Below, in pieces: positions 4,101 through 32,000 of a stretch of DNA of 32,000 nucleotides; position 1 is the stretch's first letter; every line of letters begins with the position of its first letter. The position numbers and the translations under genes are program-made. The DNA is taken from the NCBI GenBank assembly GCA_963718915.1, contig CAVRAI010000015.1, positions 720,001 through 752,000 on the forward strand, given 5' to 3'. The stretch is from an uncultured Chloroflexia bacterium. Lineage in GTDB: Bacteria > Chloroflexota > Ktedonobacteria > Ktedonobacterales > JADMIN01. The notes below the pieces were generated by a model, which had not been told where the DNA came from, searched no databases, and saw only the letters and a list, made by a program, of their open reading frames with translations.

Positions 4101-4821
4101 TGTAGCGTTCTCTGGCCACGCGCACCAGACCACTGGCTATATCGCGTCGCCGTATGTGGATCGTGAGTGCCCCCTGGAGCTCGCATATGCGCTGACGGTT
4201 CACAAGGCGCAGGGCAGCCAGTTTGATATTGTCTTCGTCATCATTCCTGAGCAGAGCGTGCGGCTCTCGCGCGAACTGCTCTACACGGCGCTCACCCGCT
4301 CGCGTGAACGTCTGGTGTTACTGGTGCAGGGGGATGACGCGAGCCGCCTCTATGCGTACAGCCTGCCCGGCGCGTCCGACACGACTCGCCGCAATACCAA
4401 TCTCTTTACCCCAGCGGTTCGCGACCCTGCCTCTGACTATCCAAACGCCAGATATCTCATTCACCGGACCCCCGGCGGTCAACTCGTGCGCAGTAAGTCG
4501 GAACTGGTCATCGCGAATATGCTCGAACACATGGATATCCCCTACAAATACGAGGAGCCGTTCTTTGGGGAGACCGAGCCGGGACGGCGCTTCCCAGACT
4601 TCACCTTCGCAACCGCCGCTGGCAGACGCATCATCTGGGAGCACCTCGGCATGCTCACGCTCCCCGACTATGCGCGCGGCTGGGAGGAGAAGCGTCTCTG
4701 GTACAAGAGAAACGGCTACCTTGAGGGAGCGCAATTGTTCACCACCCGTGACGACGAGCGAGGTGGGCTGGATTCACGCGACGTGCGGAAGGTCGCGGAG
4801 CGTATTCAGGCGCTCATCTGA
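1114..4821 (+). CDS. 1235-aa fusion: uncharacterised N-terminal region + SF1B RecD/TraA-like helicase + C-terminal PD-(D/E)xK-like nuclease domain
   Basis: Uninterrupted 3.7-kb ORF with GTG start and GGGAAGGGA upstream. Helicase motifs: Walker A GHAGTGKTS (nt 3025-3051), LLLAPTGKA, IIVDEASML, ILVGDPNQLPPIG, ALTVHKAQGSQFD, LLYTALTRSRERLVLL. An NPY segment (ILANPYRIAEADLG) resembles RecD2-type N-terminal regions. C-terminal aa 1112-1235: SKSELVIANMLE...RFPDFTF...IIWEHLGM, a restriction-endonuclease-like D...E pattern. The N-terminal MQHLTIRVVWHDNRWNGRICNAPSLNGYCL could not be assigned. Confidence 0.85.
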   Translation: MQHLTIRVVWHDNRWNGRICNAPSLNGYCLAQERIRKDRDDAKEDRLAGRSWRSLRRGELPPCVAESGGFMSDNEWVRSFDPPFQNTLPATHGALRKTTMRVEPYTALAVPFRWMLREHQRRIDDRLPEPLPADETPPLHTSWVFNRIRQEAIGSQFFGQLTPEQSLVFFYCKEGQPLGDSISRLVVGVGRIQAIGLQSYYDSDGEVSYPIWDRKIHHTIRPDDDDGFLLPYHDYLTPTGDPDEDLRRRSLLETIAIAVDPAHIPAFSYSAELASSDVALATLMRCLDAVRLIRMHGIADGTWDQREQWVNDQIAATWRDRGEFPGVGSALEALGLRIGTSLMLDLTRLGMIRPESNPWPVVDAILRGTQSAPLPSYEPHLAPVRLVWANLPDERRNLLYLLARFDLSPEQARRWYEPSERAKITLTACSDGDILANPYRIAEADLGDDTSPAITMEIIDRGLFPDDAIRVHDPPPLSAAFEDHNDIRRIRGALVTVLRATARSGDTLLNAVDALERLRKLPIIPPPSNIGVDWLTAYRDPLADAVAVYNVASGDNDNVEISVVQLTELRKREDLVRKTLQGRAAAPLESLRVDWKSLLIEAIGDAYQPRNKRHHDALDEQATALERITSRKLCALTGHAGTGKTSVMGALLRCQRLREEGILLLAPTGKARVRLEQTAGKNAETPRIRAFTIAQFLYDLGRYDGDHQRALFTGDATYRHARTIIVDEASMLTLDDLAALLLALDLLHVQRIILVGDPNQLPPIGAGRPFADLVSYLDALATGDGAADTADTTAAGALGKLSIEVRTRSGDAPSDALRLASWFSRGPQPVDADRVLDQVTTGAQLNDLDISFWQTPEDLRARILEKFQTYLGLEHRSDIAGFDRALGIGEGGRVRFDAPDGVEHFQILSPTRMRPHGVYDLNRWLQRRFRADELRRAHYSNGKSLGQEEIVHKDKVIQVRNEWRWMYDHQRRLKMRGALANGEIGIIARGQGDFMDVAFSGHAHQTTGYIASPYVDRECPLELAYALTVHKAQGSQFDIVFVIIPEQSVRLSRELLYTALTRSRERLVLLVQGDDASRLYAYSLPGASDTTRRNTNLFTPAVRDPASDYPNARYLIHRTPGGQLVRSKSELVIANMLEHMDIPYKYEEPFFGETEPGRRFPDFTFATAAGRRIIWEHLGMLTLPDYARGWEEKRLWYKRNGYLEGAQLFTTRDDERGGLDSRDVRKVAERIQALI

Positions 4822-7126: not shown

Positions 7127-8491
7127 TCATCGCGCATCGAAGGGACGCAGGAACTGTGCTGGATGGAACTGAATGAACGATGCGGGAAGGATGTTCGCAG
7201 TGGGGCCGAGCGCGGTGGCCTCCGCGTTCATCGTCTTGGGATCAGTGCTGTCTTTCCACCTGCCGGTATCCAGCCGATTGATGAGTGTCTGGAATGCGGT
7301 GATAGTCTCGGCTGGCGTAAAGGCGCAGTGACCCGCGCGATGTACAAATGTCTCGCGTAGCAGGCTATTGTTGCCCGCCTCTCGCACGACGCTGGCATAC
7401 GCCTGCTCATCCTCATTCACCACCAGGCCATCGCCCGTAGTGTGCATCGTCAGCACGGGAATGTCGATATCACCGTTGAAGGTGATGTACTGGTTCAGAT
7501 AGGCGACGGCACCCGGATCGGCGGAGATGCGCGGCGCCTTTTGCAGCGTCCGCAGGTCAGCGTTGAGGTCGAGGTCGGCCTGCTTGTAGAGGGCAATGAC
7601 CTCGTTCTGGTCAACCGAGTGGGCCAACTGCGCGCGATAATCCACGCCGGTATTCCATGACGGATTGCCACCGGCGCGGCCCTCCAGATCGGTGCGCAAT
7701 GCCCAGGCAAACGGGAAGTCTACCTGCTGCTCCCAGAGGAATTGGTTCGCCTCTTGAGCGGCAAAGTCGTCGGCGGCAGGCTCTGGCGAGGTGGAGCTGA
7801 ACCAGCCGGGCAGATCACCCAGCGCGGCGGCCAGCGACAGACGCGCCCGACCCTGAGGCGTCGCCTGTGCGGTGGCAAGATCACCCTCAGCTGCGGTCAG
7901 GTTGCCGCCGGGATTGGTGATATGGACCACCTGAAGCGCGCCGCTCCCCAGCAGCAGGTTGAAGGCGAAGGCGCTATCCAGCGCCTGGTTCCAGGTACCC
8001 ACGCCTCCCGCCAGTACGCCACACATCGGCAGGGCGGCGTCGAAGCGTTGGGGATTGTGCTGCACGAGGCCAGCGGTGATGATGCCGCCGAGCGAGTGTC
8101 CCCAGGCAATCGTGCGTGTTGGGTGGCCGACATTCTTGTCGAAGAAATTGAGCAGGGCAATCTGATCGTGGAACGCCTGCTGGATCGCCCACCCGGTCTG
8201 GCTGTACGACGAGCCAGCCAGCGCATAGCCATTACTCAGCAACCACTGCCCAGTGACGGGATCGCCGACATCTTGCGCCGGATTCGCCTGTCCGGGGGCG
8301 ACGTAGCCATGGCTGTAGAGTACAAGGGTACCGTTCCAGTTCTCAGGCACCTGGATGAGATAGGCGGCGCCGTCGATGGCGCCGGTGAGCGTCTGCGCTC
8401 CGGTGGCGCGAGCAAGATGGACATTGAAAGCGAGGCTGCTCAACAAGGCCAGCAACATCAGTGGCAGGAACAGACGCAGGCGACGTTTCAT
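7127..8491 (-). CDS. Secreted alpha/beta-fold hydrolase (esterase/lipase-like)
   Basis: Start refined to ATG at 8491, which gives the signal peptide MKRRLRLFLPLMLLALLSSLAFNVHLARA with GGAAAGAGG upstream. Nucleophile elbow GHSLGG; later HTTGDG and RAGHCAF are candidate Asp/His triad segments. Confidence 0.7.
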   Translation of the reverse strand: MKRRLRLFLPLMLLALLSSLAFNVHLARATGAQTLTGAIDGAAYLIQVPENWNGTLVLYSHGYVAPGQANPAQDVGDPVTGQWLLSNGYALAGSSYSQTGWAIQQAFHDQIALLNFFDKNVGHPTRTIAWGHSLGGIITAGLVQHNPQRFDAALPMCGVLAGGVGTWNQALDSAFAFNLLLGSGALQVVHITNPGGNLTAAEGDLATAQATPQGRARLSLAAALGDLPGWFSSTSPEPAADDFAAQEANQFLWEQQVDFPFAWALRTDLEGRAGGNPSWNTGVDYRAQLAHSVDQNEVIALYKQADLDLNADLRTLQKAPRISADPGAVAYLNQYITFNGDIDIPVLTMHTTGDGLVVNEDEQAYASVVREAGNNSLLRETFVHRAGHCAFTPAETITAFQTLINRLDTGRWKDSTDPKTMNAEATALGPTANILPASFIQFHPAQFLRPFDAR

Positions 8492-8720
8492 GCGGGGGCC
8501 TCTTTCCATTCGCACAGATTCGATCCACATGGATCGGCACGAAAGTGAAAAGTGAGATGAGGGCAAGGCGCCCAAACCACCAAATCAGCCGCACTACAAC
8601 ACCACTGGGGATTCGCGGGGAAATCTGCCGGGGAACAAGCAAAGCTGCGTATTGTTGATTATATGCTGCTCTTTTGCCATTGTCCAGTCTGGGGAAGATC
8701 GCATGGGGCGAACACAACGA

Positions 8721-8752
8721 GCGGCGGATCGGGTGTTGTTCCGACCCGCCGC
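8721..8752 (-). terminator. Candidate terminator hairpin downstream of the 8801-9268 gene
   Basis: GCGGCGGaTCGG(g)/CCGAcCCGCCGC gives a stem of about 11 bp with one mismatch and a 7-nt loop. On the minus strand it is followed by the moderately T-rich TCGTTGTGTTCG. Confidence 0.4.
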
Positions 8753-8800
8753 CCGGAGGTGAGCGAGCTTACAAGCGCTTCGTCGTGTGATCAGCGTGAG

Positions 8801-9268
8801 CTAGCGCACGTCGATCTGCGTGGCGTTGATGCTGCCATCATTGTTTTTCGTGCCCTGCACGTGAATCTGGCTGCCCGTGGTGACGGCGCTCGCCGACGCC
8901 GACTGACCGCCTTTGGTGTACTTCGTGCTCGATGATGTGTGGATGGTCACCGTCGAGCCATCCGCGGCTTTGGCGGTGATTGTCTGCCCACTGACACTGG
9001 ATACGGTGTAGGCGTCACACTGGCCCTGTCCACCATGAGGGCCAGACCCCGGTGTGCTTGCTAGCGAGAATTGGGCAATGCCTGGCCCGCCCGCCGCGGC
9101 TTGCGCTGTCTTGAGCATGGTCGCGCCCGCAAACAGCCCCATGCCCAGTGTGAGCGCAAAGGCGAGCGCCAGCAATGCGGGAACCAGCCAGCGACGGCTT
9201 CTGTGCGGAGAAGCCTCCAGCGGTGGTGGTGGAATGGCCACCGGCTCATCGTACGGGTTCATCGGCAT
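8801..9268 (-). CDS. Membrane-anchored protein with a small beta-rich ectodomain (DUF5666-like)
   Basis: Start refined to ATG 9268 (MPMNPYDEP...), with a strong GGAGAGGAG RBS 3-11 nt upstream. TM helix WLVPALLALAFALTLGMGLFAGA. C-terminal QTITAKAADGSTVTIHTSSSTKY...SQIHVQGTKNNDGSINATQIDVR. Confidence 0.6.
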   Translation of the reverse strand: MPMNPYDEPVAIPPPPLEASPHRSRRWLVPALLALAFALTLGMGLFAGATMLKTAQAAAGGPGIAQFSLASTPGSGPHGGQGQCDAYTVSSVSGQTITAKAADGSTVTIHTSSSTKYTKGGQSASASAVTTGSQIHVQGTKNNDGSINATQIDVR

Positions 9269-12635: not shown

Positions 12636-15586
12636 ATGAGCCAGACGACTATGACTCCGGCGACCGACTCGCCAGCACCGAAACCACCACCGCCGCAATC
12701 GCCGGGTTTCTGGCGTTCGCTGGCGCGTGGCTTTCTTGGACTATGGTGGGTCTTTGTCGTCGCGCTGGCCGCTGGCGTCGCGTCGTATCTTGGCAACCAT
12801 GCCGGGCCGCTGGTCTTGCCGATCATCCCGCAGGTCGTCGCCTGGGCGCGCGCGCTGACGCTTCCCGCGCAGGTTGGGCTGGCGATCCTGATTCTGGCAT
12901 TGCTTGCGCTGATGGGCTGGCTGACGTACCTTGCCTGGCAGCATCGCCAGCGGCAGGCGGCGGAGGAGGTGGAGGCGAACGTTGCCCAGCAGGCAGCGGC
13001 CTTCACCCAGACGATGGAACATGACGTCAATCCGCGACTCGACAACATCGGGGCCACGGTGGACGAGACCAGCCGTGATGTGAAGACGCTGATTCAAGAA
13101 GGGCAGAGCGCGCCGCTGCCGCTCGTCCGCGATCTCGACCGCGTCAGCTTCAGGATGGGCGACCGCGCCGCCGCCAATTTCAGATATGTCTATGGGCCGG
13201 TGCGCGCTATCTTCGACCAGGCAACGGCTACACTGCATGACGCCGCTCAGTATATCGGGGCGAAGCAGGGCATTCTGGTGACGGGCGCGGCCAACGCGGG
13301 CAAGACCCGCCTGGGACTCGAAGCGCTCATCGCGGCGCTGCCCGACTGGGATACACTCGTCTGGAATGTTGGCGATGGCGAGAGCAGGATACCATCGGCG
13401 AAACAACTGGAAGGGCGCAGCGTCGCCGTCTTCCTCGACGACATCCAGAACTACGCCGCTGGTGGCGACATCGCGAGTGGTTCGGATGGGCGATCAGCTC
13501 AATCGTCGGTCGCTGGCCCAGGGGCGACCTTGCGGACACTCTATCAGCGCGTCTGCCAGGACTCCGCTCATGTCGTCATCGTCGCCACTTGTCGCCATGA
13601 GGACCAGAAAGCCGCCGAGGGTAGCCTGGGCTGGTTTTTCGAGAAGCTCGACGAAGTAGCGATCCCCACGTTCAACCGTGATGAAGGGTCATTGGAGGCG
13701 CGGGAAATCATCGCCGAGTTCGCGGAGCAAGGCGCGATTCGCGACGAGTGGAACGGCACGCTCGGCTCGCTGGTGCTCGGCCTGGGCCGCAAACGCCAGC
13801 AATATAGAGACCTGGTGCTTCAGCATAATCCCGATAATCCTGCCGTCCCCGTGCTGCGCGCGATGAAGCTGCTGACCATTGGTGGCGTCCTCGATCTGAC
13901 GGGAAGCCGCGTGCGCGCCGTCTGCGACCAGATGCTGCACAGGTCATCGCTGGCAGTGTTGGGCGAAGCATGGGATGACGCGCTTGAGGAGTTGAAACGC
14001 CTGGAGTTCGTCGCGATTACCCCGACCGATGATGGCGACGTGCGGGTGGCGATTCTCAAGGATGATTACTTCAAATATGTCGTGGACGACTATCCGGAGG
14101 ACTACCAGCTTCAGCAACACCGCGCTGGCCTATTGAATGTGCTGGTATCGCTCAAAGACGACGATGCCCTGTTCGATCTGGGTAATGGATTCTACTTTGA
14201 CGATCTATTTACCTCGGCCCTCGCCGCCTACGAGCAGGCGATCCGCCTCAACCCGACAATGCCACCGCCTATAACAACATGGGCACGACCCTCGGCAAGC
14301 TCGAACGCTACGCCGAGGCCCTCGCCGCCTACGAGCAGGCGATCCGCCTCAACCCGACCGATGCCACCGCCTATTACAACATGGGCACGACCCTCGGCAA
14401 GCTCGAACGCTACGCCGAGGCCCTCGCCGCCTACGAGCAGCGATCCGCCTCAACCCGACCGATGCCACCGCCTATAACAACATGGGCAATACCCTCGATA
14501 CGCTCGAACGCTACGCCGAGGCCCTCGCCGCCTACGAGCAGGCGATCCGCCTCAACCCGACCGATGCACCGCCTATAACAACATGGGCACGACCCTCGGC
14601 AAGCTCGAACGCTACGCCGAGGCCCTCGCCGCCTACGAGCAGGCGATCCGCCTCAACCCGACCGATGCCACCGCCTATAACAACATGGGCACGACCCTCG
14701 GCAAGCTCGAACGCTACGCCGAGGCCCTCGCCGCCTACGAGCAGGCGATCCGCCTCAACCCGACATATGCCACCGCCTATAACAACATGGGCACGACCCT
14801 CGATACGCTCGAACGCTACGCCGAGGCCCTCGCCGCCTACGAGCAGGCGATCCGCCTCAACCCGACCGATGCCACCGCCTATAACAACATGGGCAATACC
14901 CTCGGCAAGCTCGAACGCTACGCCGAGGCCCTCGCCGCCTACGAGCAGGCGATCCGCCTCAACCCGACCGATGCCACCGCCTATAACAACATGGGCACGA
15001 CCCTCGATACGCTCGAACGCTACGCCGAGGCCCTCGCCGCCTACGAGCAGGCGATCCGCCTCAACCCGACATATGCCACCGCCTATAACAACATGGGCAA
15101 TACCCTCGATACGCTCGAACGCTACGCCGAGGCCCTCGCCGCCTACGAGCAGGCGATCCGCCTCAACCCGACATATGCCACCGCCTATAACAACATGGGC
15201 AATACCCTCGGCAAGCTCGAACGCTACGCCGAGGCCCTCGCCGCCTACGAGCAGGCGATCCGCCTCAACCCGACCTATGCCACCGCCTATAACAACATGG
15301 GCACGACCCTCGATACGCTCGAACGCTACGCCGAGGCCCTCCAAGCATTCGAGGAAGCCATCAAACTCGATCCCAACAGTGCAGGCGCCTGGCGTAACAA
15401 GAGTGTTACGCTGGCTCTACAGGAACAGTTCGATGAGGCGCTTATCGCCTGTGACAAAGCGATTGAATTGGCCCACAAGACGCCAATGGCTGGAAGTTAA
15501 AAGCCGCGATCCTCGATGAGCTTGGGCGTGAGGATGAGGCGCGCGCCGCCGAGGAACGGGCGAAACAACTGGAAGAGCTATATTAG
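12636..15586 (+). pseudogene. Membrane-anchored P-loop NTPase fused to a TPR array of about 14 repeats (STAND/NLR-like); reading frame interrupted by four 1-nt deletions
   Basis: ATG 12636 with GGAGG 8 nt upstream. TM helices at aa ~33-52 and ~80-100. Walker A GAANAGKT (13284-13307) and Walker B VAVFLDD (13422-13442). The TPR reading continues across four ORF-track fragments (12636.., 14279.., 14482.., 14583..) and a fifth frame that encodes PQDANGWKLKAAILDELGREDEARAAEERAKQLEELY and ends at TAG 15584-15586. Frame shifts 0>2>1>0>2 occur at about 14259, 14441, 14568 and 15472. Confidence 0.75.
14216..15341 (+). repeat. Tandem array of 11 near-identical 102-bp units, each encoding one 34-aa TPR
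   Basis: Units begin at 14261, 14363, 14464, 14566, 14667, 14769, 14871, 14973, 15075, 15177 and 15279. The spacing is 102 bp except where a base is missing. Consensus: ATAYNNMG[T/N]TL[GK/DT]LERYAEALAAYEQAIRLNPT[D/Y]. Confidence 0.95.
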
Positions 15587-15797: not shown

Positions 15798-17450
15798 ATG
15801 ACCGCGCCAACGGAGAAAGATATTCCTGTAGTGTGTGATGTCGCCATCATCGGCGGCGGCATCGCCGGATTGACTGTCGCACTGAATATGCCTGAGAGCT
15901 TGCGCGTCGTCCTGATGACCAAGGCGGCGCTCGGCGAGAGCAATACCCGCTACGCGCAAGGTGGACTCGCCGCTGCCGTTGGCCCCGACGACGATCCTGA
16001 GTTGCACCTGCACGACACGCTGGCGGCAGGCGCGGGGCTGGTAGACGAGACGGCAACCGGGGTGCTGGTGCGCGAGGCGCGCGACGCCGTCGCCTGGCTG
16101 ATCGCGGAGGGCGCGCGCTTCGACGAGCAGGCGAACGCCACAGAGACAGTGCGGGACGACCTGGCCCACCGCTACGATCTGGCCCGCGAGGCCGCGCACA
16201 GCCGCCGCCGGGTGCTGCATGCACGCGACGCTACTGGCGCCGAGATCGAGCGGGCGCTGGTCGCCGCGATTCGTGCCCGGCCCGGCGCGCTGGTTCTCGA
16301 AGATACGCAGGCGCTCGATCTGGCCTTGGGCGATGGCGCGTGCGTTGGCGTGGACGTGTTCCATGGCGGCGAGACCCGGCGCATTCTGGCGCGGGGCGGC
16401 GTTGTGCTGGCGAATGGCGGCGCGGGCCAGCTCTGGCTGCGCACGTCGAATCCAACGGGGGCGACGGCCGACGGCCTGGCGCTGGCGTGGCGCGCGGGCG
16501 CGGTGGTCAGCGATGTCGAGTTTGTACAGTTCCATCCCACCACGCTCGTCTCGCCGTCGGGTGAGACGTTCCTCATCTCCGAGGCGGTGCGCGGTGAGGG
16601 CGCCTGGCTGCGTAACGCGGCGGGCGAGCGCTTCATGACGCGCTACTCGTCGGACGCTGAATTGGCCCCGCGCGATGTCGTCGCCCGCGCCATCCTCAGC
16701 GAGATGCTGGCCGAGAACGCGCCATCGGCTTTCCTCGATCTGCGCCATCTGCCCGAACACGAGGTCTACGAGCGCTTCCCGACGATTGCCGCCGCCTGCC
16801 GCAGAGACGGCCTCGATCTTGCCCACGATCTGATTCCCGTCGCACCTGCCGCGCACTACTTCATGGGCGGAGTGACGGTGGACACCTGGGGGCGGACGAC
16901 CGTTCCCGGCCTCTTCGCGGTCGGCGAGGTATCGTGTACCGGCGTGCATGGCGCGAATCGGCTTGCCAGCAATTCGCTGTTGGAGGGGCTGGTCTTTGGC
17001 CGCAGGGTCGCATCGGTGCTGGCGGGCGTGGCGAATCCGGGCGACTGGCCGACGACCTCACCGCTGCCCGGCGTCCAGCGTGACACTGCCGCTATAGTGC
17101 TGCCCGAACGCTCGCTGACCGCGCATGTCGCCGAGGCGATACGCCAGCAGTTGCGTGCGACGATGTGGCGCGATGTCTCGCTGCGCCGCGACGCGCAGGG
17201 GCTGACTGAGGCGGGTGAGACGCTGCGCAGACTGTCGGCGTCCGGCCCGGTGGACCCAGAGACGGCGAATATGCTGCTGGCGGCGCAACTGATTGCGACG
17301 GCGGCGCTGGCACGCGAGGAGAGCCGCGGCGGCCACTTCCGCGAGGACTTCCCCAACCGTGATACGGCACTCGACGGCGTCCATTCGCTGCTGCATGCCG
17401 CGACGGTCGTTGCCCCGTGGGAAGAGCAAGAGGCGGCGGCCCATGCCTGA
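15798..17450 (+). CDS. nadB: L-aspartate oxidase
   Basis: FAD-binding DVAIIGGGIAGL; then YAQGG, RDATGAEI, HPT, and RLASNSLLEGLVFG...EESRGGHFRED, typical of the NadB/succinate-dehydrogenase flavoprotein family. GAGGAG RBS upstream. Confidence 0.95.
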   Translation: MTAPTEKDIPVVCDVAIIGGGIAGLTVALNMPESLRVVLMTKAALGESNTRYAQGGLAAAVGPDDDPELHLHDTLAAGAGLVDETATGVLVREARDAVAWLIAEGARFDEQANATETVRDDLAHRYDLAREAAHSRRRVLHARDATGAEIERALVAAIRARPGALVLEDTQALDLALGDGACVGVDVFHGGETRRILARGGVVLANGGAGQLWLRTSNPTGATADGLALAWRAGAVVSDVEFVQFHPTTLVSPSGETFLISEAVRGEGAWLRNAAGERFMTRYSSDAELAPRDVVARAILSEMLAENAPSAFLDLRHLPEHEVYERFPTIAAACRRDGLDLAHDLIPVAPAAHYFMGGVTVDTWGRTTVPGLFAVGEVSCTGVHGANRLASNSLLEGLVFGRRVASVLAGVANPGDWPTTSPLPGVQRDTAAIVLPERSLTAHVAEAIRQQLRATMWRDVSLRRDAQGLTEAGETLRRLSASGPVDPETANMLLAAQLIATAALAREESRGGHFREDFPNRDTALDGVHSLLHAATVVAPWEEQEAAAHA

Positions 17451-18366
17451 TAACACATCCAATCCATTCCTACAGCCCCCTCTCCCCGTGGGGGAGGGGT
17501 CAGGGGAGGGGGCCGCCTTCGATCCCATCTTCGATACCGACCTGGTTCGGCGCGCGCTGGCTGAGGATGTTGGTCGGGGCGACGTGACCACCCAGGCGAC
17601 GATTGCGCCGGGAACGCGGAGCAGCGCCCGTATCGTCGCGCGCCAGGCGGGCGTTGTCGCTGGGCTGCCCATCGCCGCGCTGACCTTCGCCCAGCTCGAT
17701 CCCGGCGTCCAGTTCGAGACACTCACACCCGACGGCACATCTGTGGAGGCGGGGACAACGCTGGCGCGCGTCTCGGGTGACGCGGCGGCGCTGCTGACAG
17801 CCGAGCGGACGGCGCTCAACTTCCTGGGTCGCCTCTCCGGCATCGCCACGCTGGCGGCGCGTTGTGTCGCGGCGGTAGCGGGCACGCGCGCGCGTATCGT
17901 GGATACGCGCAAGACGACGCCGGGCCTGCGTCTGCTGGAGAAGTACGCGGTGCGCATGGGTGGCGCGCGCAATCACCGTGCGGGGCTGGATGACGGCATT
18001 CTCATCAAAGACAACCATATCGCCGCTGCGGGCAGCCTGACGCTGGCGGTCGAGCGGGCGCGCGCCCATGCCTCGCACCTCCTGAAAATCGAAGTCGAGT
18101 GCGAGAGCGAATCCCAGGTGCGCGAGGCGATCACCGCCGAAGCCGACTCGATTCTGCTGGACAACATGACGCCCGACCAGCTGCGTAGCGCCGTCGCGCT
18201 GATTCGCGAGCAGGCGCCAAATATCACCATCGAGGCGTCCGGCAATATCGGAACCGATCCGCGTAAGCTGGCGGCGGTGGCGGCGACCGGCGTTGACCTG
18301 ATCTCGCTTGGCGCGCTGACCCATTCCGCACCCAACTTCGACGTTGCACTGGACTTCGAGAGCTAG
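17443..18366 (+). CDS. nadC: Nicotinate-nucleotide (quinolinate) pyrophosphorylase
   Basis: ATG 17443 overlaps the nadB stop codon (ATGCCTGA). Contains LAEDVGRGDVTT, ERTALNFLGRLSGIAT, DTRKTTPGLR, KYAVRMGGARNHR and LLDNM. GTG 17488 is an alternative start. The longer ORF-track start at 17293 lies inside nadB. Confidence 0.92.
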   Translation: MPDNTSNPFLQPPLPVGEGSGEGAAFDPIFDTDLVRRALAEDVGRGDVTTQATIAPGTRSSARIVARQAGVVAGLPIAALTFAQLDPGVQFETLTPDGTSVEAGTTLARVSGDAAALLTAERTALNFLGRLSGIATLAARCVAAVAGTRARIVDTRKTTPGLRLLEKYAVRMGGARNHRAGLDDGILIKDNHIAAAGSLTLAVERARAHASHLLKIEVECESESQVREAITAEADSILLDNMTPDQLRSAVALIREQAPNITIEASGNIGTDPRKLAAVAATGVDLISLGALTHSAPNFDVALDFES

Positions 18367-18413
18367 CCCATATTCTTCGCACGGCAATGGCGCCGGATAG
18401 GAGCAACCTACAT

Positions 18414-19676
18414 ATGGCTATCAAGTTGGAGACATTTCCGCAGGGCGAAATCTGCGTCGAGAGCCGTGACGCGCGCATCCTGCCCTCGCTGGACGAGTGG
18501 CGCGAGCGCGAGTCGGGCAACCTGGCGCAACACAAGCCGCGCCACTCCGGATCGGAACGCGCCGACGCCATCCCCCGCGAGTACGCGCTGATGGACGCCG
18601 ACGAGCTTGACCGGCGGATTATGGCGGCGCGGGCAAAGCTGGGGACGCGGCTGGTGATTCTCGGCCACCACTATCAGCGCGACGAGGTCATCAAGTACGC
18701 CGACGCGCGCGGCGACTCATTCAAGCTGGCGCAGTTCGCGGCGGCGCGCCCAGAGGCCGACTACATCCTCTTCTGCGGCGTCCATTTTATGGCCGAGAGC
18801 GCCGATATTCTCAGCGGGCCGCACCAGACAGTGATTCTGCCGAACCCGGCGGCAGGCTGCTCGATGGCCGATATGGCGAACATCGCCGAGGTGGAGGAGT
18901 GCTGGGAGGCGCTGGACGCGCTCTACGGCGACGAGACGACGGGCGAAGAGGGCGAGTCACAATCGGTCATCCCCGTCACGTATATGAATTCCGCCGCCAA
19001 CCTGAAGGCATTCTGCGGGCGCAACGGCGGCATCGTCTGCACCAGCTCCAACGCGGCGCAAGTGATGGCGTGGGCGTTCGCGCGTGGGCGGCGTGTGCTC
19101 TTCTTCCCTGATGAGCACCTGGGCCGCAATACGGCGCTGAAGATGGGCATCCCTGAGGAGCGGATCGCCGTCTGGAACCAGCGGCTGGACTTCGGCGGCA
19201 TCGAGGACGATGAGAAGCTGATGCAGGCGAAGGTGATCCTGTGGAAGGGCTGGTGCTCGACGCATGCGCGCTTCACCGCCGCGCAGATCGAGCAGGCGCG
19301 CAGGGACTATCCCGGCGTGCGCGTGCTGGTGCATCCGGAGTGCCGCCACGAGGTGGTGGCCGCCGCCGACCTCAACGGCTCGACCGAGTATATTGTCAAG
19401 GCGGTGGCGGAAGCGCCAGCGGGGACAATCTGGGCCATCGGCACGGAAATCAACCTGGTGAAACGGCTAGCGAAAGAGCATACCGACCAGACGATCTTCT
19501 GTCTCGACCCTGTCGTCTGCCCCTGCTCGACGATGTACCGTATCCATCCCGCCTATATCGCCTGGGTGCTGGAGGAGCTGGTGGAAGGGCGCGTGGTGAA
19601 CCAGGTGCGCGTGGACGACGAGACGGCGAAGTGGGCCAAGGTGGCGCTGGAGCGTATGCTGGCAAACAGGGGGTAG
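18414..19676 (+). CDS. nadA: Quinolinate synthase (long-N-terminus type)
   Basis: ILGHHYQRDEV, FCGVHFMAES, CSMAD, YMNSAA, VHPEC and PCSTMYRI include the three Cys-containing Fe-S cluster segments. Start chosen at ATG 18414, which has AGGAG 10 nt upstream. ATG 18387 is also possible. Confidence 0.92.
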   Translation: MAIKLETFPQGEICVESRDARILPSLDEWRERESGNLAQHKPRHSGSERADAIPREYALMDADELDRRIMAARAKLGTRLVILGHHYQRDEVIKYADARGDSFKLAQFAAARPEADYILFCGVHFMAESADILSGPHQTVILPNPAAGCSMADMANIAEVEECWEALDALYGDETTGEEGESQSVIPVTYMNSAANLKAFCGRNGGIVCTSSNAAQVMAWAFARGRRVLFFPDEHLGRNTALKMGIPEERIAVWNQRLDFGGIEDDEKLMQAKVILWKGWCSTHARFTAAQIEQARRDYPGVRVLVHPECRHEVVAAADLNGSTEYIVKAVAEAPAGTIWAIGTEINLVKRLAKEHTDQTIFCLDPVVCPCSTMYRIHPAYIAWVLEELVEGRVVNQVRVDDETAKWAKVALERMLANRG

Positions 19677-22822: not shown

Positions 22823-23857
22823 ATGAGCCGCCAGCGCGAGGAAAGGGCTTGGCGTATGATGTCACTTGCTGGATGGATGGCGAAGAAACGGCTACGTTCC
22901 CTGTTGTGGCTGCTCCCATTGCTGAGCCTGGCGCTGGCCACACTTGCTTGCGGCATAAGTTTCGGCTCGCACGTGGGGTATCATCCCCCGCCCGTGACAC
23001 ACCTCCCCGCTTCGCAACTGCGCCTGGAGATCCAGATCGGCGGCCAGTACGAACAGTATGGTAATCCGAGTGGCGCGCCTACCGTTGGGATCGCGGTGCG
23101 TGTCCTTGAGGGAACGAAAGCCAGCGAGTCATCTTTGGCCGATAAGGCAACGTTGACCTGCAACGGTGTCGATATCAAACGGAACGCCTACGGCTTCTCG
23201 CCACCATGCCCGCGCCAGCCGCCAGGGGGAGCGTATCGCCTTGTCTATACCGACGAGCATGGCGCGAAGACAACTGTCGTCATCCCTGTTCCTACTGGCA
23301 CGTTCGCCATCGTCTCACCGCAGGATGGCGCGGCAGTTCCGATCCCCACGAGTGGAACGCTTCCGGTACGCTTCACGGTCCCGATGGCGTCCGCCGACGG
23401 CAGCGTCGCCATAGACAATGTCACAGCGGCATGCAGCGTCTCGGATGCCCAGCCGTGCGGCGCGGTCTACGCCAATCTGCGCCCCACCGCAACCGCGACG
23501 CCGGGCCAGGGTCGTGGGATCTCCGCACTTGCTCCTCTCAGTGAAGGCATAGGGAACGCGACGCCGCTGCCGGGGAAAACACCGACAGGCGTCCCTATTC
23601 CCACTTTGCCTCCCACTCCGTCGCCAGGCGCAACGCAAACGCCGACCACACCCTTCCCCACTCCAACTGTCGTCGTGACACAGCACGGAGACACGGGAAC
23701 CATCCTGTTGTCCGGCGATTACTCCGAATTTCAACCCGCGAAAGGCTTCCTTTCGATGACCGTCGAGGCGCATGAGACGCCTGATCCCGGTGACTTTTCT
23801 TCCGTGTCGATCACCTACACGGATACCCTTCACACCCAATTCACCTGGACGCGGTGA
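22823..23857 (+). CDS. Secreted or lipid-anchored protein of unknown function, paralog 1
   Basis: Signal sequence ...KKRLRSLLWLLPLLSLALATLAC. Conserved PPVTHLPASQLRL, LTCNG, CPRQPPGGAYR and a Pro/Thr-rich linker. The start is uncertain (22823, 22856 or 22877). Confidence 0.65.
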   Translation: MSRQREERAWRMMSLAGWMAKKRLRSLLWLLPLLSLALATLACGISFGSHVGYHPPPVTHLPASQLRLEIQIGGQYEQYGNPSGAPTVGIAVRVLEGTKASESSLADKATLTCNGVDIKRNAYGFSPPCPRQPPGGAYRLVYTDEHGAKTTVVIPVPTGTFAIVSPQDGAAVPIPTSGTLPVRFTVPMASADGSVAIDNVTAACSVSDAQPCGAVYANLRPTATATPGQGRGISALAPLSEGIGNATPLPGKTPTGVPIPTLPPTPSPGATQTPTTPFPTPTVVVTQHGDTGTILLSGDYSEFQPAKGFLSMTVEAHETPDPGDFSSVSITYTDTLHTQFTWTR

Positions 23858-23873: not shown

Positions 23874-24848
23874 ATGGTCAACGCGCGTATTCCTATTGGC
23901 CGGGTTCGGCGTCTCTTGCTGTGGCTGTTGCCGTTGGTGAGTCTGGCGCTGGCCATCCTGGCCTGTTCCGCCGTAAACATTACCCCACGGCGTCCCGTTC
24001 CTCCGCCTGTTACGCACCTGCCAGCCTCACAGTTGCGCCTGATGATCCAGATTTTCAGGCAGTATACCGACGCGCCCACTGTGCAGACACTGATCCACGT
24101 CTATGAGGCGCAGAGCGGCCAGGAGGTTTCCCTGGCCGACAAGACCCGCCTGACCTGCAATGGCAGCGATGTAAAGTATAGTTATCCGAACAACGCGAAT
24201 CCGGCATGTCCGCGCCAGCCGCCCGGCGGGGCGTACCGCTTCACATTTACCGACGAGGACGGCGCTGCAACAACCGTCGTCGTGCCCGTCCCCGCTGGCC
24301 AGTACGCCGTCCTGTCGCCGCGCGCTGGCTCGACGGTTCATATCCCCAGGGATGGAGCGCTCGCCGTACGCTTCACCCTCCCCATCCCGCCTCCCAACAG
24401 CCGCATCACATTGCTCGAAGTGATCGCGGCGTGTCAGGGGACATCTAGCGCCTCATGTGACTCGATTGCGAACAACTTCTTTATCGCGGCGACGCCCACG
24501 CCACTCACGGGGGTTCCCAGCCCCACGGCTTTCGTCTACCATGGTCCGCCAACGCCGACGCCGAGCAGTAGCAAGCCCACCGCGACGGTCTACGAAAATC
24601 GCGGGCCGCCCACCCCAACGCCACCGCCAGGCTCTACCCCGACGGCGCCAGAGTTCGACGGGACGGTGACGCAGACTGGCGGCGTGGCGACTGTCGCGCT
24701 GACCGGCGACTATGCCCCGTTTCTGCCAGGACCGGGCAGCATCGAAATCAGCATCGCGGAGCAGATCGCGCCAGATCAGGGAGGCTTCGCCGCCGCCAGC
24801 GCCACAATGGGCGGCGACGTGACCGCCAACATCACCTGGACGCGCTGA
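23874..24848 (+). CDS. Secreted or lipid-anchored protein of unknown function, paralog 2
   Basis: Start refined to ATG 23874 (MVNARIPIGRVRRLLLWLLPLVSLALAILAC), with GAGAGGAGG upstream. Shares the same conserved blocks as 22823-23857 (PPVTHLPASQLRL, LTCNG, CPRQPPGGAYR, final ...TWTR). Confidence 0.7.
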   Translation: MVNARIPIGRVRRLLLWLLPLVSLALAILACSAVNITPRRPVPPPVTHLPASQLRLMIQIFRQYTDAPTVQTLIHVYEAQSGQEVSLADKTRLTCNGSDVKYSYPNNANPACPRQPPGGAYRFTFTDEDGAATTVVVPVPAGQYAVLSPRAGSTVHIPRDGALAVRFTLPIPPPNSRITLLEVIAACQGTSSASCDSIANNFFIAATPTPLTGVPSPTAFVYHGPPTPTPSSSKPTATVYENRGPPTPTPPPGSTPTAPEFDGTVTQTGGVATVALTGDYAPFLPGPGSIEISIAEQIAPDQGGFAAASATMGGDVTANITWTR

Positions 24849-28195: not shown

Positions 28196-29042
28196 ATGCC
28201 ACGCCATCTGGTCTGCCTGACGTTCGACTTTGACGCGCTCTCGCTCTGGCTCGCGCGCGGGAATCACCTCGCCGACGCCGATCTCGCAGGGGGAGTTTGG
28301 CGCGGTTGGCGCGGAGCGCATCCTGGCGTTGCTTGCCAGCCACAGCATCCACGCCACCTGGTTCATTCCCGGCCATACCATCGAGACGTATCCCGACCTG
28401 TGCGGGCGTATCCACGCCGCGGGCCACGAGATCGGCCACCACGGTTACGCGCACGAAGCGCCGGTCAATCTCGCGCGCGAGGCGGAGGAGGCGGTACTGG
28501 TGCGCGGGAACGAGGCGATTCGCAGTCTTACGGGCGCTCCGGCGACCGGCTACCGCTCGCCCGCCTGGGATCTCAGCCCGCATTCGGTCGATTTGCTGCT
28601 GGCCCACGGCTTCATCTACGACAGCAGCATGATGGCGAACGACTACACGCCGTACTACGCGCGACACGGGGACGTGATTCCGCTCGACCAACCAGCCCAG
28701 TTTGGGGAGACGACGCGGCTGATCGAGCTACCGGTCAGTTGGTCGCTGGACGACTTTCCCCACTTCGAGTATCTCTGGACGGCGACACATTTGCAGGGCG
28801 GTCTACGCCGCGCCGATGACGTGCTCGCCAACTGGCTCGACGACTTCCGCTACATGGCGCGCACGCAGGAGTGGGGCGTGCTCACGCTCACCTTCCATCC
28901 GCAGGTAATCGGGCGCGGGCATCGCATGCTGATGCTGGAGCGGCTGATCGAGCAACTCGAAGGGCTGGGAGCCACCTTCGCTCGTATGGATGCCGTGGCC
29001 CAGGAGTTTGCCCAGCGCAGCGCAACGCCCGGCACGAACTGA
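28196..29042 (+). pseudogene. Polysaccharide deacetylase (NodB/PuuE-like) with a +1 frameshift near codon 22
   Basis: ATG 28196 encodes MPRHLVCLTFDFDALSLWLARG, the family N-terminus including the FDFD motif. The family sequence then continues in another frame (ITSPTPISQGEFGAVGAERILALLASHSIHATWFIPGH...HEIGHHGYAHE). Removing one G from the run at 28259-28261 restores a single ORF. Confidence 0.7.
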
Positions 29043-29086: not shown

Positions 29087-29134
29087 GACAGGGCAGCCAG
29101 ACATAGTATGTCGCGTAGCGGAGAGGCAGTGGCC

Positions 29135-30450
29135 ATGAGCGCATTTCATACGACCTTCGTCAGCCATGCCCACGCCGATAACGACCTCTGCGACCGCTAC
29201 GTCGCGGCGCTGCGGGCGCGCGGGATCGATATCTGGTACGACCGAGACAACGCGCAGAACGGCCATCTGCTCGGCTCAGCGATCCAGGATGAACTGAAGC
29301 GCCGTTCGGCGTTCGTGCTGCTGATGACCGAGGCGTCGCTCACCTCATTCTGGGTTGACCTGGAGACGCAGACCTGGCTTGGCCTGATGGCGCAACAGCG
29401 TTCGCGCCTCTTGCTGCCCGTGCGTATTGGCTCCTGCGCCGTGCCGCCAATGCTCAACGCCTTCTTCTGGGTCGATGCGCAGGCGATGCCGTTCGAGAAA
29501 GCGATTGACGCTATCGCAGCCGCGCTGAACGGTACTCCGTCGCCGTCGGCAAGCCACCGTTACCCCACGCCGCGCGACACATTGCCGCCGCTCGGCCCGG
29601 CGCCCGCGCCCGCCAACAGCGCACCCGCGCACCACCTGACGCCGATGCCGCTCTACAATCTGGGCTTTCGCGGCTACACCATCGGCGGCATTGAATGCAT
29701 TCTGCCGCCGCTCTGCCCCGTGCCTGGTGGCGTATTCACCATGGGCAGCGACAAGAGCCGCGATAAAGAGGCGCAAGATAGGGAGACGCCGCAGTATCCG
29801 GTCGAGGTGGACAGCTTCGCCATCGGCCAGCACCCCGTCACCGTCGCCGAGTATGCCTGCGCCGTCCGCGCGAAAGTAGTTCGTGAGCCGCCACAATACG
29901 AGTCAGGTGGCAACAAATATGGGCCAGATTGGGTGACGCAACATACGCATCCTGACCATCCGGTGGTCTGCGTTTCCTGGGACGACGCCATAGCGTATCT
30001 GAAATGGCTGGCAAAGACTGACGGGCCAGCCGTGGCGACTGCCGACCGAGGCGGAGTGGGAGAAGGCGGCGCGTGGCGATGGACGGGCGCATCTATCCCT
30101 GGGGCGATACGTTCGACAAGGCGCGCTGCAACACGGGCGAAAGCGGCATCGGCACGACCACGCCCGTCGGTCGTTATCCCAACGGCGCGAGTCCCTATCA
30201 CGCGCAGGATATGGCCGGCAACGTCTGGGAGTGGACGAGCAGCCTGTTTCAGCCCTATCCCTACCGCAAAAACGACGGACGGGAGAATCCAGATTCTACT
30301 GGTAATCGAGTGCTGCGTGGCGGTTCGTGGAGCGACAATTCCAGGGTTGCGCGCGCGGCCTACCGCTTCGACTTCTACAGTCCGGCCAACTTCAACGTCG
30401 ACGGAGGGTTCCGTCTGGCTCTGGCGCGTGCGGCGGCTGGTTCAGCATAA
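29135..30450 (+). pseudogene. TIR domain fused to an FGE/SUMF1-like (non-catalytic) domain; interrupted by two +1 frameshifts
   Basis: ATG 29135 with GGAGAGG 8 nt upstream. TIR: TFVSHAHADNDLCDRYVAALRARGIDIWYDRDN...AFVLLMTEASLTSFWVDLE. Pro-rich linker. FGE-like: PGGVFTMGSD...YPVEVDSFAIGQHPVTVAEYACAV...VVCVSWDDAIAYLKWLAK. The family sequence then continues in a second frame (TGQPWRLPTEAEWEKAARGDGR, 30021-30086) and a third frame (DGRIYPWGD...NVWEWT...RVLRGGSW...GGFRLA, ending at 30450). Confidence 0.75.
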
Positions 30451-30735
30451 TTCTCTGGTTCTGATTTCTGAATTGCATTTACAATAGAATAACACTGACA
30501 GCAGAAATGGAATGGCGGGGTGTGTTTCTGGCCGCGCGTAGCGCGGAAAATTGGGGGAAATCTAACGTCTCGCCACCAAAAGCCGCTCGTCACCTGTATG
30601 ATCGCTGATGGCCGTTGCCTACCGCAAAGTCCTGCCCTTGAGCCTGCGGAACGATCCGCCTCGTCGTAGCAAGCGTGGGAAGCATGCGGGAGGTCGCTCC
30701 TCGTTGCGTGCGCTCCATGGGGCAGACCGAACCCA

Positions 30736-30963
30736 GTGCTGCGTGGCGGCTCGTGGAACAACAATTCCAGGAACGCGCGCGTGGCCTACCGCAACGACAA
30801 CCAATGGGACAACTTCAACAACAACGAAGGGTTCCGTCTGGCTCTGGCGCGTGCGGCGGATGATCCAGCGTTTCCGGCCAGTAAATCCGCACGAGTCCCG
30901 TTCGCGGGAAATCGACGGACGCGGCCACCATATGCTGAACCAGCGCGGTCATGTCCCGGCTGA
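30736..30963 (+). pseudogene. 5'-truncated remnant of a second FGE-like domain gene
   Basis: [41 protein letters not shown] parallels 30313-30430. It includes a 31-bp identical run, GGGTTCCGTCTGGCTCTGGCGCGTGCGGCGG. No intact N-terminal portion exists upstream; there is an in-frame stop at 30667. Confidence 0.6.
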
Positions 30964-31113
30964 GGCCAGACGACGCCGTACACGTCCTTTTGGCCAGCCA
31001 AATACAAAATAGATCTGCCTCCCGCAACCGACTGAACATGTCGGCACTAACGGCTGTGTGGTGTGTCACCCCTGCCGCGATGCGCGGGGCAGACGCTTTT
31101 TCCTGCGCGATAA

Positions 31114-31248
31114 GCTGGCGGTTGAAACCGCGCCTGAAGGGCCTGCGGCCACGAAACCCGCCTGTCGCGGGTTCCTCAAGCGTCCGCTCGCAATCATCTA
31201 CGGTACTGAACGGCCAGGATTAGCCGCAGAGGCTCTCAGCCTGCGGCC
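31114..31248 (+). repeat. Composite REP-like intergenic element, copy B (module 1 at 31114-31182, module 2 at 31217-31248)
   Basis: GCTGGCGGTTGAAACCGCGCCTGAAGGGCCTGCGGCCACGAAACCCGCCTGTCGCGGGTTCCTCAAGCG, then GGATTAGCCGCAGAGGCTCTCAGCCTGCGGCC. Has the same architecture as copy A. Confidence 0.8.
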
Positions 31249-31292
31249 AGCGTTCCCATAGTCCCGCCTCGCCCAGAAAGCAGTAGAGATCC

Positions 31293-32000
31293 TCAATACC
31301 CCCGATATTGCGGCGGTTGCGGCCAGGCGGGATACGTCCGCGACTTTGGCGGCGGGAGCTTCCGCATGAATGGCCGTAGTATTAGCGCGATGAGTAGCCC
31401 CGCGACGAAGCCACCGACGTGCGCGAAATAGGCGACGCCGCCGCTATTGACCAGTTGCGGGTTGAGGCTCTGCAAGCCTGAGACCAGTTGCAGCACGAAC
31501 CACAGGCCGATGACCACCAGCGCGGGCAAAGTGGTAAACGTGATGATGATGCCGAGGAAGATCAGCGAGCGCACGCGCGCGCCGGGATAGAAGATGAGGT
31601 ATGCGCCCAGGACGCCCGCGATGGCTCCGCTCGCGCCCAGGTTGATGAGTTGCGAGTTGGGGTCCACGAAAATCTGCGCCGCCGAGGCGACCAGCCCACA
31701 GAAGAGATAGAAGATCAGATACCAGAAGTGGCCCAGCCGGTCCTCGACGTTATCGCCAAAGATCCAGAGGTAGAGCATATTGCCGCCGATGTGTAGCAGA
31801 TTCGCATGCAGGAACATCGAGGTGAGCAGTGTGATATAGACCGGCTGCGGCTGTCCATAGGCGCAACCCTGGAACGTAACCTCGGCGTTGTGGGTGATGC
31901 CATACGGGATCGTCGAATAGGCGAACTGGAAGCACTGGCCGTAGACCATCTCGGCAATGAAGACGCCAATATTGATGAGGATCAGCGTGTAGTTGACGAA
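31293..32000 (-). CDS. Rhomboid-family intramembrane serine protease (5' end lies outside the window)
   Basis: FLHANLLHIGGNMLYLWIFG, GASGAIAGVLGAY (catalytic Ser) and FAHVGGFVAG (catalytic His). The frame stays open upstream of the ORF-track Met to the window edge (FVNYTLILINIGVFIAEMV...). Confidence 0.85.
   Translation of the reverse strand, partial: FVNYTLILINIGVFIAEMVYGQCFQFAYSTIPYGITHNAEVTFQGCAYGQPQPVYITLLTSMFLHANLLHIGGNMLYLWIFGDNVEDRLGHFWYLIFYLFCGLVASAAQIFVDPNSQLINLGASGAIAGVLGAYLIFYPGARVRSLIFLGIIITFTTLPALVVIGLWFVLQLVSGLQSLNPQLVNSGGVAYFAHVGGFVAGLLIALILRPFMRKLPPPKSRTYPAWPQPPQYRGY

Follow-up and report, generated by a model that had tools for sequence, protein, structure and literature searches.

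A 32,000-nt stretch of an uncultured Ktedonobacterales genome from the Chloroflexota (contig CAVRAI010000015.1, positions 720,001 to 752,000; the whole stretch is called the window here) contains a gene, TIR-FGE, that joins an N-terminal TIR domain to a C-terminal domain of the formylglycine-generating enzyme (FGE) family. Judged from sequence, the product of this gene is likely a cytoplasmic receptor with two modules that falls into the class of putative antigen sensors diversified by diversity-generating retroelements (DGRs). Given the relation between a variable region (VR) at the end of the FGE domain and a template repeat (TR) behind the gene, this domain would act as a ligand sensor open to hypermutation, and the effector to which it is fused is a probable NADase. 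TIR-FGE belongs to a kind already outlined by comparative genomics and is not a novel class; particular to it are the minimal two-domain form, the dispersed paralogues in Ktedonobacterales and, in the window, a TR module without a reverse transcriptase (RT). An earlier sequence-only reading had recognised a TIR domain with an FGE-fold sensor, which stands as a two-module reading, but it had missed both the DGR VR in the C-terminal ~26 codons and the TR 426 nt downstream. Its proposal of a compact single-protein abortive-infection candidate suits the window copy poorly: with two frameshifts and neither RT nor Avd in the window, this copy is, as it stands, a weak candidate for an active single-gene system of that type.

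Variable region, template repeat and complete cassettes

The end of the gene and a non-coding segment behind it form a direct repeat (30304-30446 against 30730-30869; Table 1), the gene-side copy of which reads ...GGSWSDNSRVARAAYRFDFYSPANFNVDGGFRLA in translation. The VR is mismatched at 16 of the 34 TR adenines as against 8 of the 106 other TR bases (Fisher p 1.1e-6), and this concentration on adenines is the signature of a DGR, where TR adenines are mutated in the VR. The 3' ends contrast as would be expected of an initiation of mutagenic homing (IMH) site and its template-side counterpart IMH*, the VR ending in CTGGTTCAGCA and the TR in ATGATCCAGCG, and the same contrast is found in the window and in the related cassettes L062 and L037. 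Variability within the family is concentrated in the same segment, with a mean entropy of 2.5 bits at aa 398-423 compared to 1.25 at the other positions of the FGE domain in the family alignment. Orthologous VRs differ chiefly at TR-adenine columns, for instance at 16/34 of these against 10/100 others between the window and its orthologue L001 (p 1e-5). We also considered the downstream copy as a truncated FGE gene and rejected this, as it matches the last 45 profile positions only and shares homology with TR modules from complete cassettes.

Such complete cassettes were found by scanning a degenerate TR pattern over species-representative genomes, which yielded 83 loci, mostly from Chloroflexota. 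An RT homologue was present in 68 of these loci, and 16 encode TIR and FGE in a single open reading frame (ORF). Among 80 metagenome loci encoding relatives with a generic FGE domain, taken as a control, only two had an RT nearby, and one of the two was L093, the only TIR-FGE locus in that set. The cassettes of Ktedonobacterales are arranged in the order target gene with VR, DGR-type RT, bAvd, TR and structured RNA. An RT was found in each of the related cassettes L037, L062/L092, L070 and L093, and the RTs of the Ktedonobacterales cassettes bear two motifs that are typical of DGRs, IGNQTSQ and YVDD. In L092, the target P0020 (TIR_2 plus FGE, 437 aa, 68% identity with the TIR-FGE protein of the window) is followed by an RVT_1 gene and then by the TR, and in L037 a bAvd-like gene (PF22296, E 4e-15) is located between RT and TR. 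Mismatches between VR and TR fall on adenines versus other bases in proportions of 16/31 versus 0/94 and 18/30 versus 0/94 in L070, 11/30 versus 2/95 in L062, and 15/23 versus 2/89 in L037. The comparison of neighbourhoods that the sequence-only reading had called for thus places close relatives of TIR-FGE in complete target-RT-Avd-TR cassettes. The bAvd gene of L092 (8481-8902), likewise located between RT and TR, is split over two frames, its N-terminal half at 8481-8693 and its C-terminal half at 8678-8902. An exact search for the window TR in metagenomes returned no match, and a sliding-identity scan of the TIR-FGE gene against a cassette paralogue detected no recombination breakpoint in the FGE core.

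A TIR domain fused to a lectin-fold domain

The TIR_2-type domain predicted for the N-terminus was recovered in the repaired product by Pfam (PF13676, aa 8-125, E 1.1e-17, 65 bits vs a cutoff of 28). Its SFWVDLE segment, previously proposed as the glutamate context of NAD-cleaving TIRs, bears this out: in the alignment, W73 and E77 correspond to the W and E of W-x-x-x-E in the NAD+ hydrolase AbTIR ('DWTNYE') and in PdTIR, E77 is invariant in an alignment of 84 homologous sequences, and S71 and W73 are nearly so. The catalytic glutamate of AbTIR is E208. By alignment, therefore, the TIR domain holds an intact glutamate of catalytic type, and the domain is probably an NADase effector. The N-terminus of the protein coincides with the first TIR strand and direct reading reveals no signal peptide or membrane segment, hence the protein should be cytoplasmic. 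Pfam detected TIR_2 and FGE-sulfatase but no STAND NTPase domain, and a length of 437 aa with these two domains leaves no space for a third.

Between the two modules lies the Pro-rich linker that had been described, modelled by AlphaFold2 as disordered at aa 135-146 only, and then a complete FGE-fold domain, as also anticipated (aa 195-428, E 7e-55, 187 bits vs a cutoff of 23, profile positions 7-254 of 255). The observation that no Cys follows RGGSW was upheld by direct reading of the repaired protein, which contains none from there to its C-terminus, where the Cu-binding Cys pair would be expected in an FGE; these positions are hypervariable in the family. Sequence alignments to true FGEs end exactly at GGSW, and sulfatase genes were found neither among the window ORFs scanned nor in the orthologous loci. 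By these features the FGE/C-type-lectin-fold domain is not an FGE enzyme, and the view that it acts as a binding module, already preferred in the sequence-only reading, is supported. The structural model that had been suggested as a check reached a predicted local distance difference test (pLDDT) score of 92.8 and gave FGE-fold matches in Foldseek, namely ToxD, CalU17, EgtB, PvdO and true FGEs (human, Streptomyces coelicolor and T. curvata FGE, E ~1e-17), plus the DGR variable protein TvpA (2y3c, E 5e-15).

The architecture is shared with DGR targets known from comparative genomics. Doré et al. (2024, PNAS, PMC10907252) described DGR targets with FGE-type C-type-lectin (CLec) domains in conflict systems, some of them with TIR, proposed them to be antigen sensors, and assigned the RTs to clades common to multicellular bacteria, filamentous Chloroflexi among them. 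Kaur et al. (2020, eLife, PMC7159879) described hypervariable 'FGS' domains that are tied to DGRs and always C-terminal to other domains, and Vallota-Eastman et al. (2020, PMC7517822) listed TIR-like N-termini among cyanobacterial variable proteins. The earlier claim of novelty was therefore overstated. As for function, no test of a TIR-CLec DGR target turned up in a search of the literature. TIR-FGE shares with the sensors of Doré et al. and Kaur et al. the C-terminal FGE-type CLec domain with the VR, an N-terminal conflict effector among which TIR is listed, an RT clade of filamentous or multicellular bacteria including Chloroflexi, and several targets per genome. It differs in being a minimal TIR-linker-CLec protein without STAND/NACHT NTPase, vWA-MoxR partner, CHAT or adaptor domains, in its Ktedonobacterales origin, and in a window copy whose TR is accompanied by neither RT nor Avd. 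The cyanobacterial proteins likewise combine a C-terminal CLec VR with N-terminal signalling or effector domains, TIR-like ones included, and comprise remote variable proteins and paralogues as the TIR-FGE family does; they come, however, from another phylum, are dominated by Ser/Thr kinase and orthocaspase N-termini, and were read in terms of regulatory tuning rather than immunity.

TvpA of Treponema denticola and Mtd of phage BPP-1 resemble TIR-FGE in the FGE subclass of the C-type-lectin fold and the C-terminal VR, and their DGRs resemble the related cassettes in adenine-specific TR-to-VR mutagenesis, an IMH-type 3' boundary and the presence of RT and Avd. Yet they are surface or virion proteins without an effector domain, unlike the predicted cytoplasmic protein with TIR, and BPP-1 has the order target-avd-TR-Sp-RT in place of target-RT-Avd-TR with a structured RNA 3' of the TR. 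On the effector side, AbTIR, TIR-SAVED, TIR-STING, SPARTA and Thoeris ThsB share the TIR_2-type domain with W-x-x-x-E, and activation by oligomerisation upon ligand sensing would be expected as in these. The putative sensor of TIR-FGE, known here from sequence, is a hypermutable lectin fold and not a nucleotide-binding or Argonaute module. SUMF1/FGE has the same Pfam family and fold but differs by its Cu-binding Cys pair, its sulfatase neighbours and a C-terminal segment that is not hypervariable as it is here.

In a functional receptor of this class, an RT-Avd complex would copy the TR RNA with adenine-specific errors, and the cDNA would replace the VR and rewrite the ligand-binding face of the lectin fold, so that each cell lineage would carry its own receptor specificity. 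Binding of an invader-derived ligand might then induce self-association of the TIR domains and cleavage of NAD+, which might end in growth arrest or abortive infection; ligand-driven NAD+ cleavage and its outcome are drawn here by analogy from TIR effectors that carry a sensor, and from the antigen-sensor hypothesis (PMC10907252, PMC7159879). If this mechanism is true, TIR-FGE would be about the smallest possible hypermutating immune receptor, a single lectin-fold domain wired to an NAD+-consuming TIR effector, and the concept of a 'bacterial antigen receptor' that Doré et al. and Kaur et al. put forward could be tested directly with one 437-aa protein plus an RT-Avd-TR cassette, with the intact relatives P0020/L092 and L037 as natural test cases. 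The several dispersed paralogues per Ktedonobacterales genome make the family look like a receptor repertoire.

State of the window copy and rival explanations

The gene is not intact as assembled. The ORF list gives one 459-aa ORF at 29108-30487 that is protein-like over its first ~300 residues only, the unrepaired frame 1 running on to 30487, and three-frame translation reveals an FGE-like domain spread over three frames, from frame 1 to 2 near 30017 and to 3 near 30078. The repair of the frame that had been called for was indeed needed: DNA alignment to two intact syntenic orthologues placed two 1-nt insertions at T30019 and C30077, neither in a homopolymer context, and their removal restores a 437-aa ORF from the ATG at 29135 to the TAA at 30448-30450.

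Several observations weigh against an active, diversifying receptor at this locus, beginning with these two frameshifts. RT and Avd left no trace in the 32-kb window, where three RTs and three Avd fragments used as tblastn queries produced noise only, and none of the best 120 RT homologues is located on the 1,044,980-bp contig of the window, which is not conclusive. The syntenic orthologues have no TR at all. With 8 non-adenine mismatches (7.5%) and a 3-nt indel, the VR/TR pair is leakier than active pairs, and at 30324 and 30356 the VR has the state of the orthologues L001/L002, which lack a TR, while the TR has the state of both VR and TR of the L092 cassette; the window VR thus does not descend from the window TR alone. 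Moreover, the gene sits among housekeeping genes and not in a defence island, and no PADLOC defence-system model spans the whole TIR-FGE architecture.

The distribution of the mismatches along the VR allows a more specific account. From 30384 to the IMH region, VR and TR differ exclusively on TR adenines (30386, 30397, 30398, 30400, 30404), and one IMH position is the sole non-adenine difference downstream of 30384; this adenine-only part covers 30384-30436, the 3' third of the VR, and all other non-adenine mismatches as well as the 3-nt indel are located 5' of it. Position 30404 is followed by a constant stretch of 31 nt in which VR and TR are the same, including 6 nt missing from the orthologue L001. 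Partial 5' conversion is known for DGRs from marker-transfer experiments. The simplest reading of the sequences would be that the TR module comes from an L092-type cassette lineage, that the latest homing from it converted the 3' part of the VR only, and that no full-length homing took place since that partial conversion.

The TR module belongs to a 663-bp insertion directly after the stop codon. Its opening tens of bases resemble the spacer between VR and RT of the L092 cassette, and 30692-31105 aligns at 86% identity with L062/L092 across pre-TR sequence, TR and 3' flank. In between, ~150-200 nt from the VR-side spacer to the pre-TR sequence (30475-30670) have no match in related cassettes and include 15 nt that nearly repeat a segment of the TR (30613-30627 vs 30780-30794). 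In Chloroflexota DGRs with the RT-Avd-TR order, the TR is directly followed by a structured RNA of ~230 nt, the position of which is analogous to that of the 'Sp' region behind the TR of the Bordetella phage DGR. A common fold of seven TR flanks comprises 63 pairs, with 92% of cells paired compared to 35-48% when partners are slid and compensatory changes in 27 pairs compared to 4-11, values that were not attained in any of 500 shuffles; the seven sequences that served for this test had also served to derive the structure, and two of them are close relatives. This RNA terminates in a hairpin and a U run. Folded as a single sequence, the TR module of the window is not significant alone (z -1.7), Rfam identified no known RNA family in 30300-31300, and a simple terminator and promoter scan of the TR module found nothing.

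The strongest competitor is that the locus is a dead relic, i.e. a true pseudogene with a TR left over from a cassette that lost RT and Avd, a historical DGR signature and nothing functional today. This is a tentative but substantial possibility that draws on the two frameshifts, on the missing RT and Avd, and on the mismatch level, for the window pair has a 3-nt indel and its 7.5% is intermediate between active pairs (0-2%) and the 15-24% non-adenine mismatch that separates the remote paralogues in the complete genome CP126532.1 from their own genome's TR. A second paralogue, P0111, on the same contig but outside the window, is frameshifted too, a few codons upstream of position 30019, which may reflect either a systematic assembly error in the paralogue-conserved segment or parallel decay. 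On the other hand, the neighbouring polysaccharide deacetylase (28196-29042) also has an extra A near 28262 (GGGAATC vs GGGATC in orthologues) that shifts the frame after codon 22 and removes the N-terminal TFDFD motif, while the remaining protein is 96% identical to its orthologues, which suggests indel errors of the assembly rather than decay. The two insertions in TIR-FGE bracket the segment best conserved among paralogues, where mis-polishing is likely. Taking together the deacetylase, P0111 and the position of the insertions, assembly or polishing errors explain the frameshifts at least as well as real decay does, and whether the gene is truly pseudogenised is a close call that leans slightly towards no. 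The template side also speaks against a relic: the 236-nt flank 3' of the TR is 92.4% identical to that of the complete L092 cassette, on a par with housekeeping coding DNA (83-92%) where other intergenic DNA is mostly unalignable, all of its helices are intact, and the TR has kept its adenines (1/29 changed vs 12/95 other bases).

Given the absence of RT and Avd, the restriction of the clean adenine-only VR to the 3' third and the two 1-nt insertions, the locus is probably not under diversification at present and either decays or relies on an RT-Avd encoded elsewhere. The orphan TR with its intact structured RNA raises the question whether templates can separate from their RT. Taken furthest, the TR, the ~230-nt RNA and the U-run terminator would form a maintained, independently transcribed template gene used in trans by an RT-Avd elsewhere, in a 'distributed' DGR with orphan templates serving single TIR-receptor members; we regard this as a rather improbable extension.

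Another explanation concerns the output of the TIR domain, which might generate a signal or act as a scaffold, such as a ThsB-like source of a cyclic ADPR isomer for an effector elsewhere, or might, instead of defending against phages, allow filamentous Ktedonobacteria to recognise kin or self or to signal during development. PADLOC recognises the TIR part alone, with ThsB-type models among the best matches beside SAVED-TIR and Aga-TIR, and the housekeeping surroundings, the conserved synteny and the dispersed paralogues would suit such a role, which is also among those discussed in PMC7517822. We nevertheless consider it unlikely, since neither beside the gene nor among the ~30 window ORFs scanned was a ThsA partner (SIR2, or TM/Macro-SLOG) found, and since sensor-fused TIRs such as TIR-SAVED, TIR-STING and SPARTA are usually NAD+-depleting effectors.

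A static version of the receptor, with the TIR NADase gated by a fixed FGE-fold sensor, no hypermutation and the downstream repeat as an incidental partial duplication, would agree with the domain architecture and motifs and with syntenic orthologues that work without a local TR. It is very improbable in view of the adenine bias (p in the order of 1e-6), the homology that links the repeat, together with the 236 nt flanking it, to TR modules from cassettes with RT and Avd, and the restriction of family hypervariability to TR-adenine codons. Finally, an oxidase of the EgtB, ToxD, CalU17 or PvdO type regulated by TIR is hardly credible and the FGE domain was rejected as an enzyme, for although its best PDB sequence matches are ToxD, CalU17 and EgtB and NCBIfam returns EgtB, SenA and PvdO below threshold, these scores are far short of the cutoffs (111 vs 360 bits), the DinB iron-binding domain and the Cys pair are missing, alignments stop at GGSW, the region matching the active-site face is hypervariable, and no biosynthetic genes were found nearby among the window ORFs scanned. 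A DGR-diversified putative antigen sensor continues to be the reading that we favour for TIR-FGE.

Table 1. Coordinates and properties of the TIR-FGE gene, its VR and the downstream TR module (window positions unless a locus is named)
Feature	Position	Strand	Description
TIR-FGE gene, DGR target	29135..30450	+	437 aa once two inserted bases are removed; intact orthologues 434-435 aa, 80-81% identity
TIR_2 domain	29156..29509	+	aa 8-125, W73-x-x-x-E77; Pfam, alignment to AbTIR/PdTIR, PADLOC TIR models
Linker	29510..29716	+	Pro-rich aa ~133-165, then conserved beta-rich N-terminal extension of the FGE domain
FGE-sulfatase / C-type-lectin-fold domain	29717..30420	+	aa 195-428, no Cys after RGGSW; Pfam, Foldseek
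Frameshift 1	30019	+	extra T vs orthologues, AAGAC[T]GACGGG
Frameshift 2	30077	+	extra C vs orthologues, CGTGG[C]GATGG
VR	30304..30446	+	last ~140 nt of the gene; hypervariable codons aa 398-423 (30328-30405), ~26 codons; 3' end CTGGTTCAGCATAATTC, IMH-like
Insertion	30451..31113	+	663 bp, directly after the stop; missing from syntenic orthologues; DGR cassette fragment without RT and Avd
TR	30730..30869	+	non-coding, AAC-codon-rich, 426 nt downstream; 3' end ATGATCCAGCG, IMH*-like; 86% identical to L062/L092 TR
Conserved structured RNA 3' of TR	30870..31105	+	helices ~30876-31093, U run 31096-31100; 92.4% identical to L092
Structured RNA copies beyond the window	L092 9110-9344; L037 3106-3360(-); L049, L066, L070, L080

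Neighbouring genes

The gene is flanked by genes for MutL, a Methyltransf_28 protein, the polysaccharide deacetylase and a rhomboid protein. The syntenic orthologues, which are intact, share the order MutL, methyltransferase, deacetylase, TIR-FGE and rhomboid, and in them the TIR-FGE stop codon is separated from the rhomboid gene by no more than ~160-180 bp.

Further upstream, a 1235-aa RecD/UvrD-like helicase (1114-4821, +) is matched over its whole length by PDC-S68, a candidate defence family of PADLOC (1327 bits). Weak nSTAND_NTPase5 and TPR matches were obtained for two adjacent ORFs that are read in different frames (12636-14477 and 14482-15519, +), and as the second begins inside a TPR repeat, they may be a single STAND-TPR gene cut by a frameshift. 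They are followed by a cluster for NAD biosynthesis on the same strand (15798-19676; nadB 15798-17450, nadC 17293-18366, nadA 18387-19676), ~10 kb upstream of the TIR gene, and its proximity to a predicted NAD-consuming TIR is probably coincidental. GC content rises up to 0.70 over 16-18 kb. Two tandem paralogues (22859-23857 and 23874-24848, +) with ~40% mutual identity and no Pfam or PADLOC match are conserved at the orthologous loci L001 and L002, where they precede mutL.

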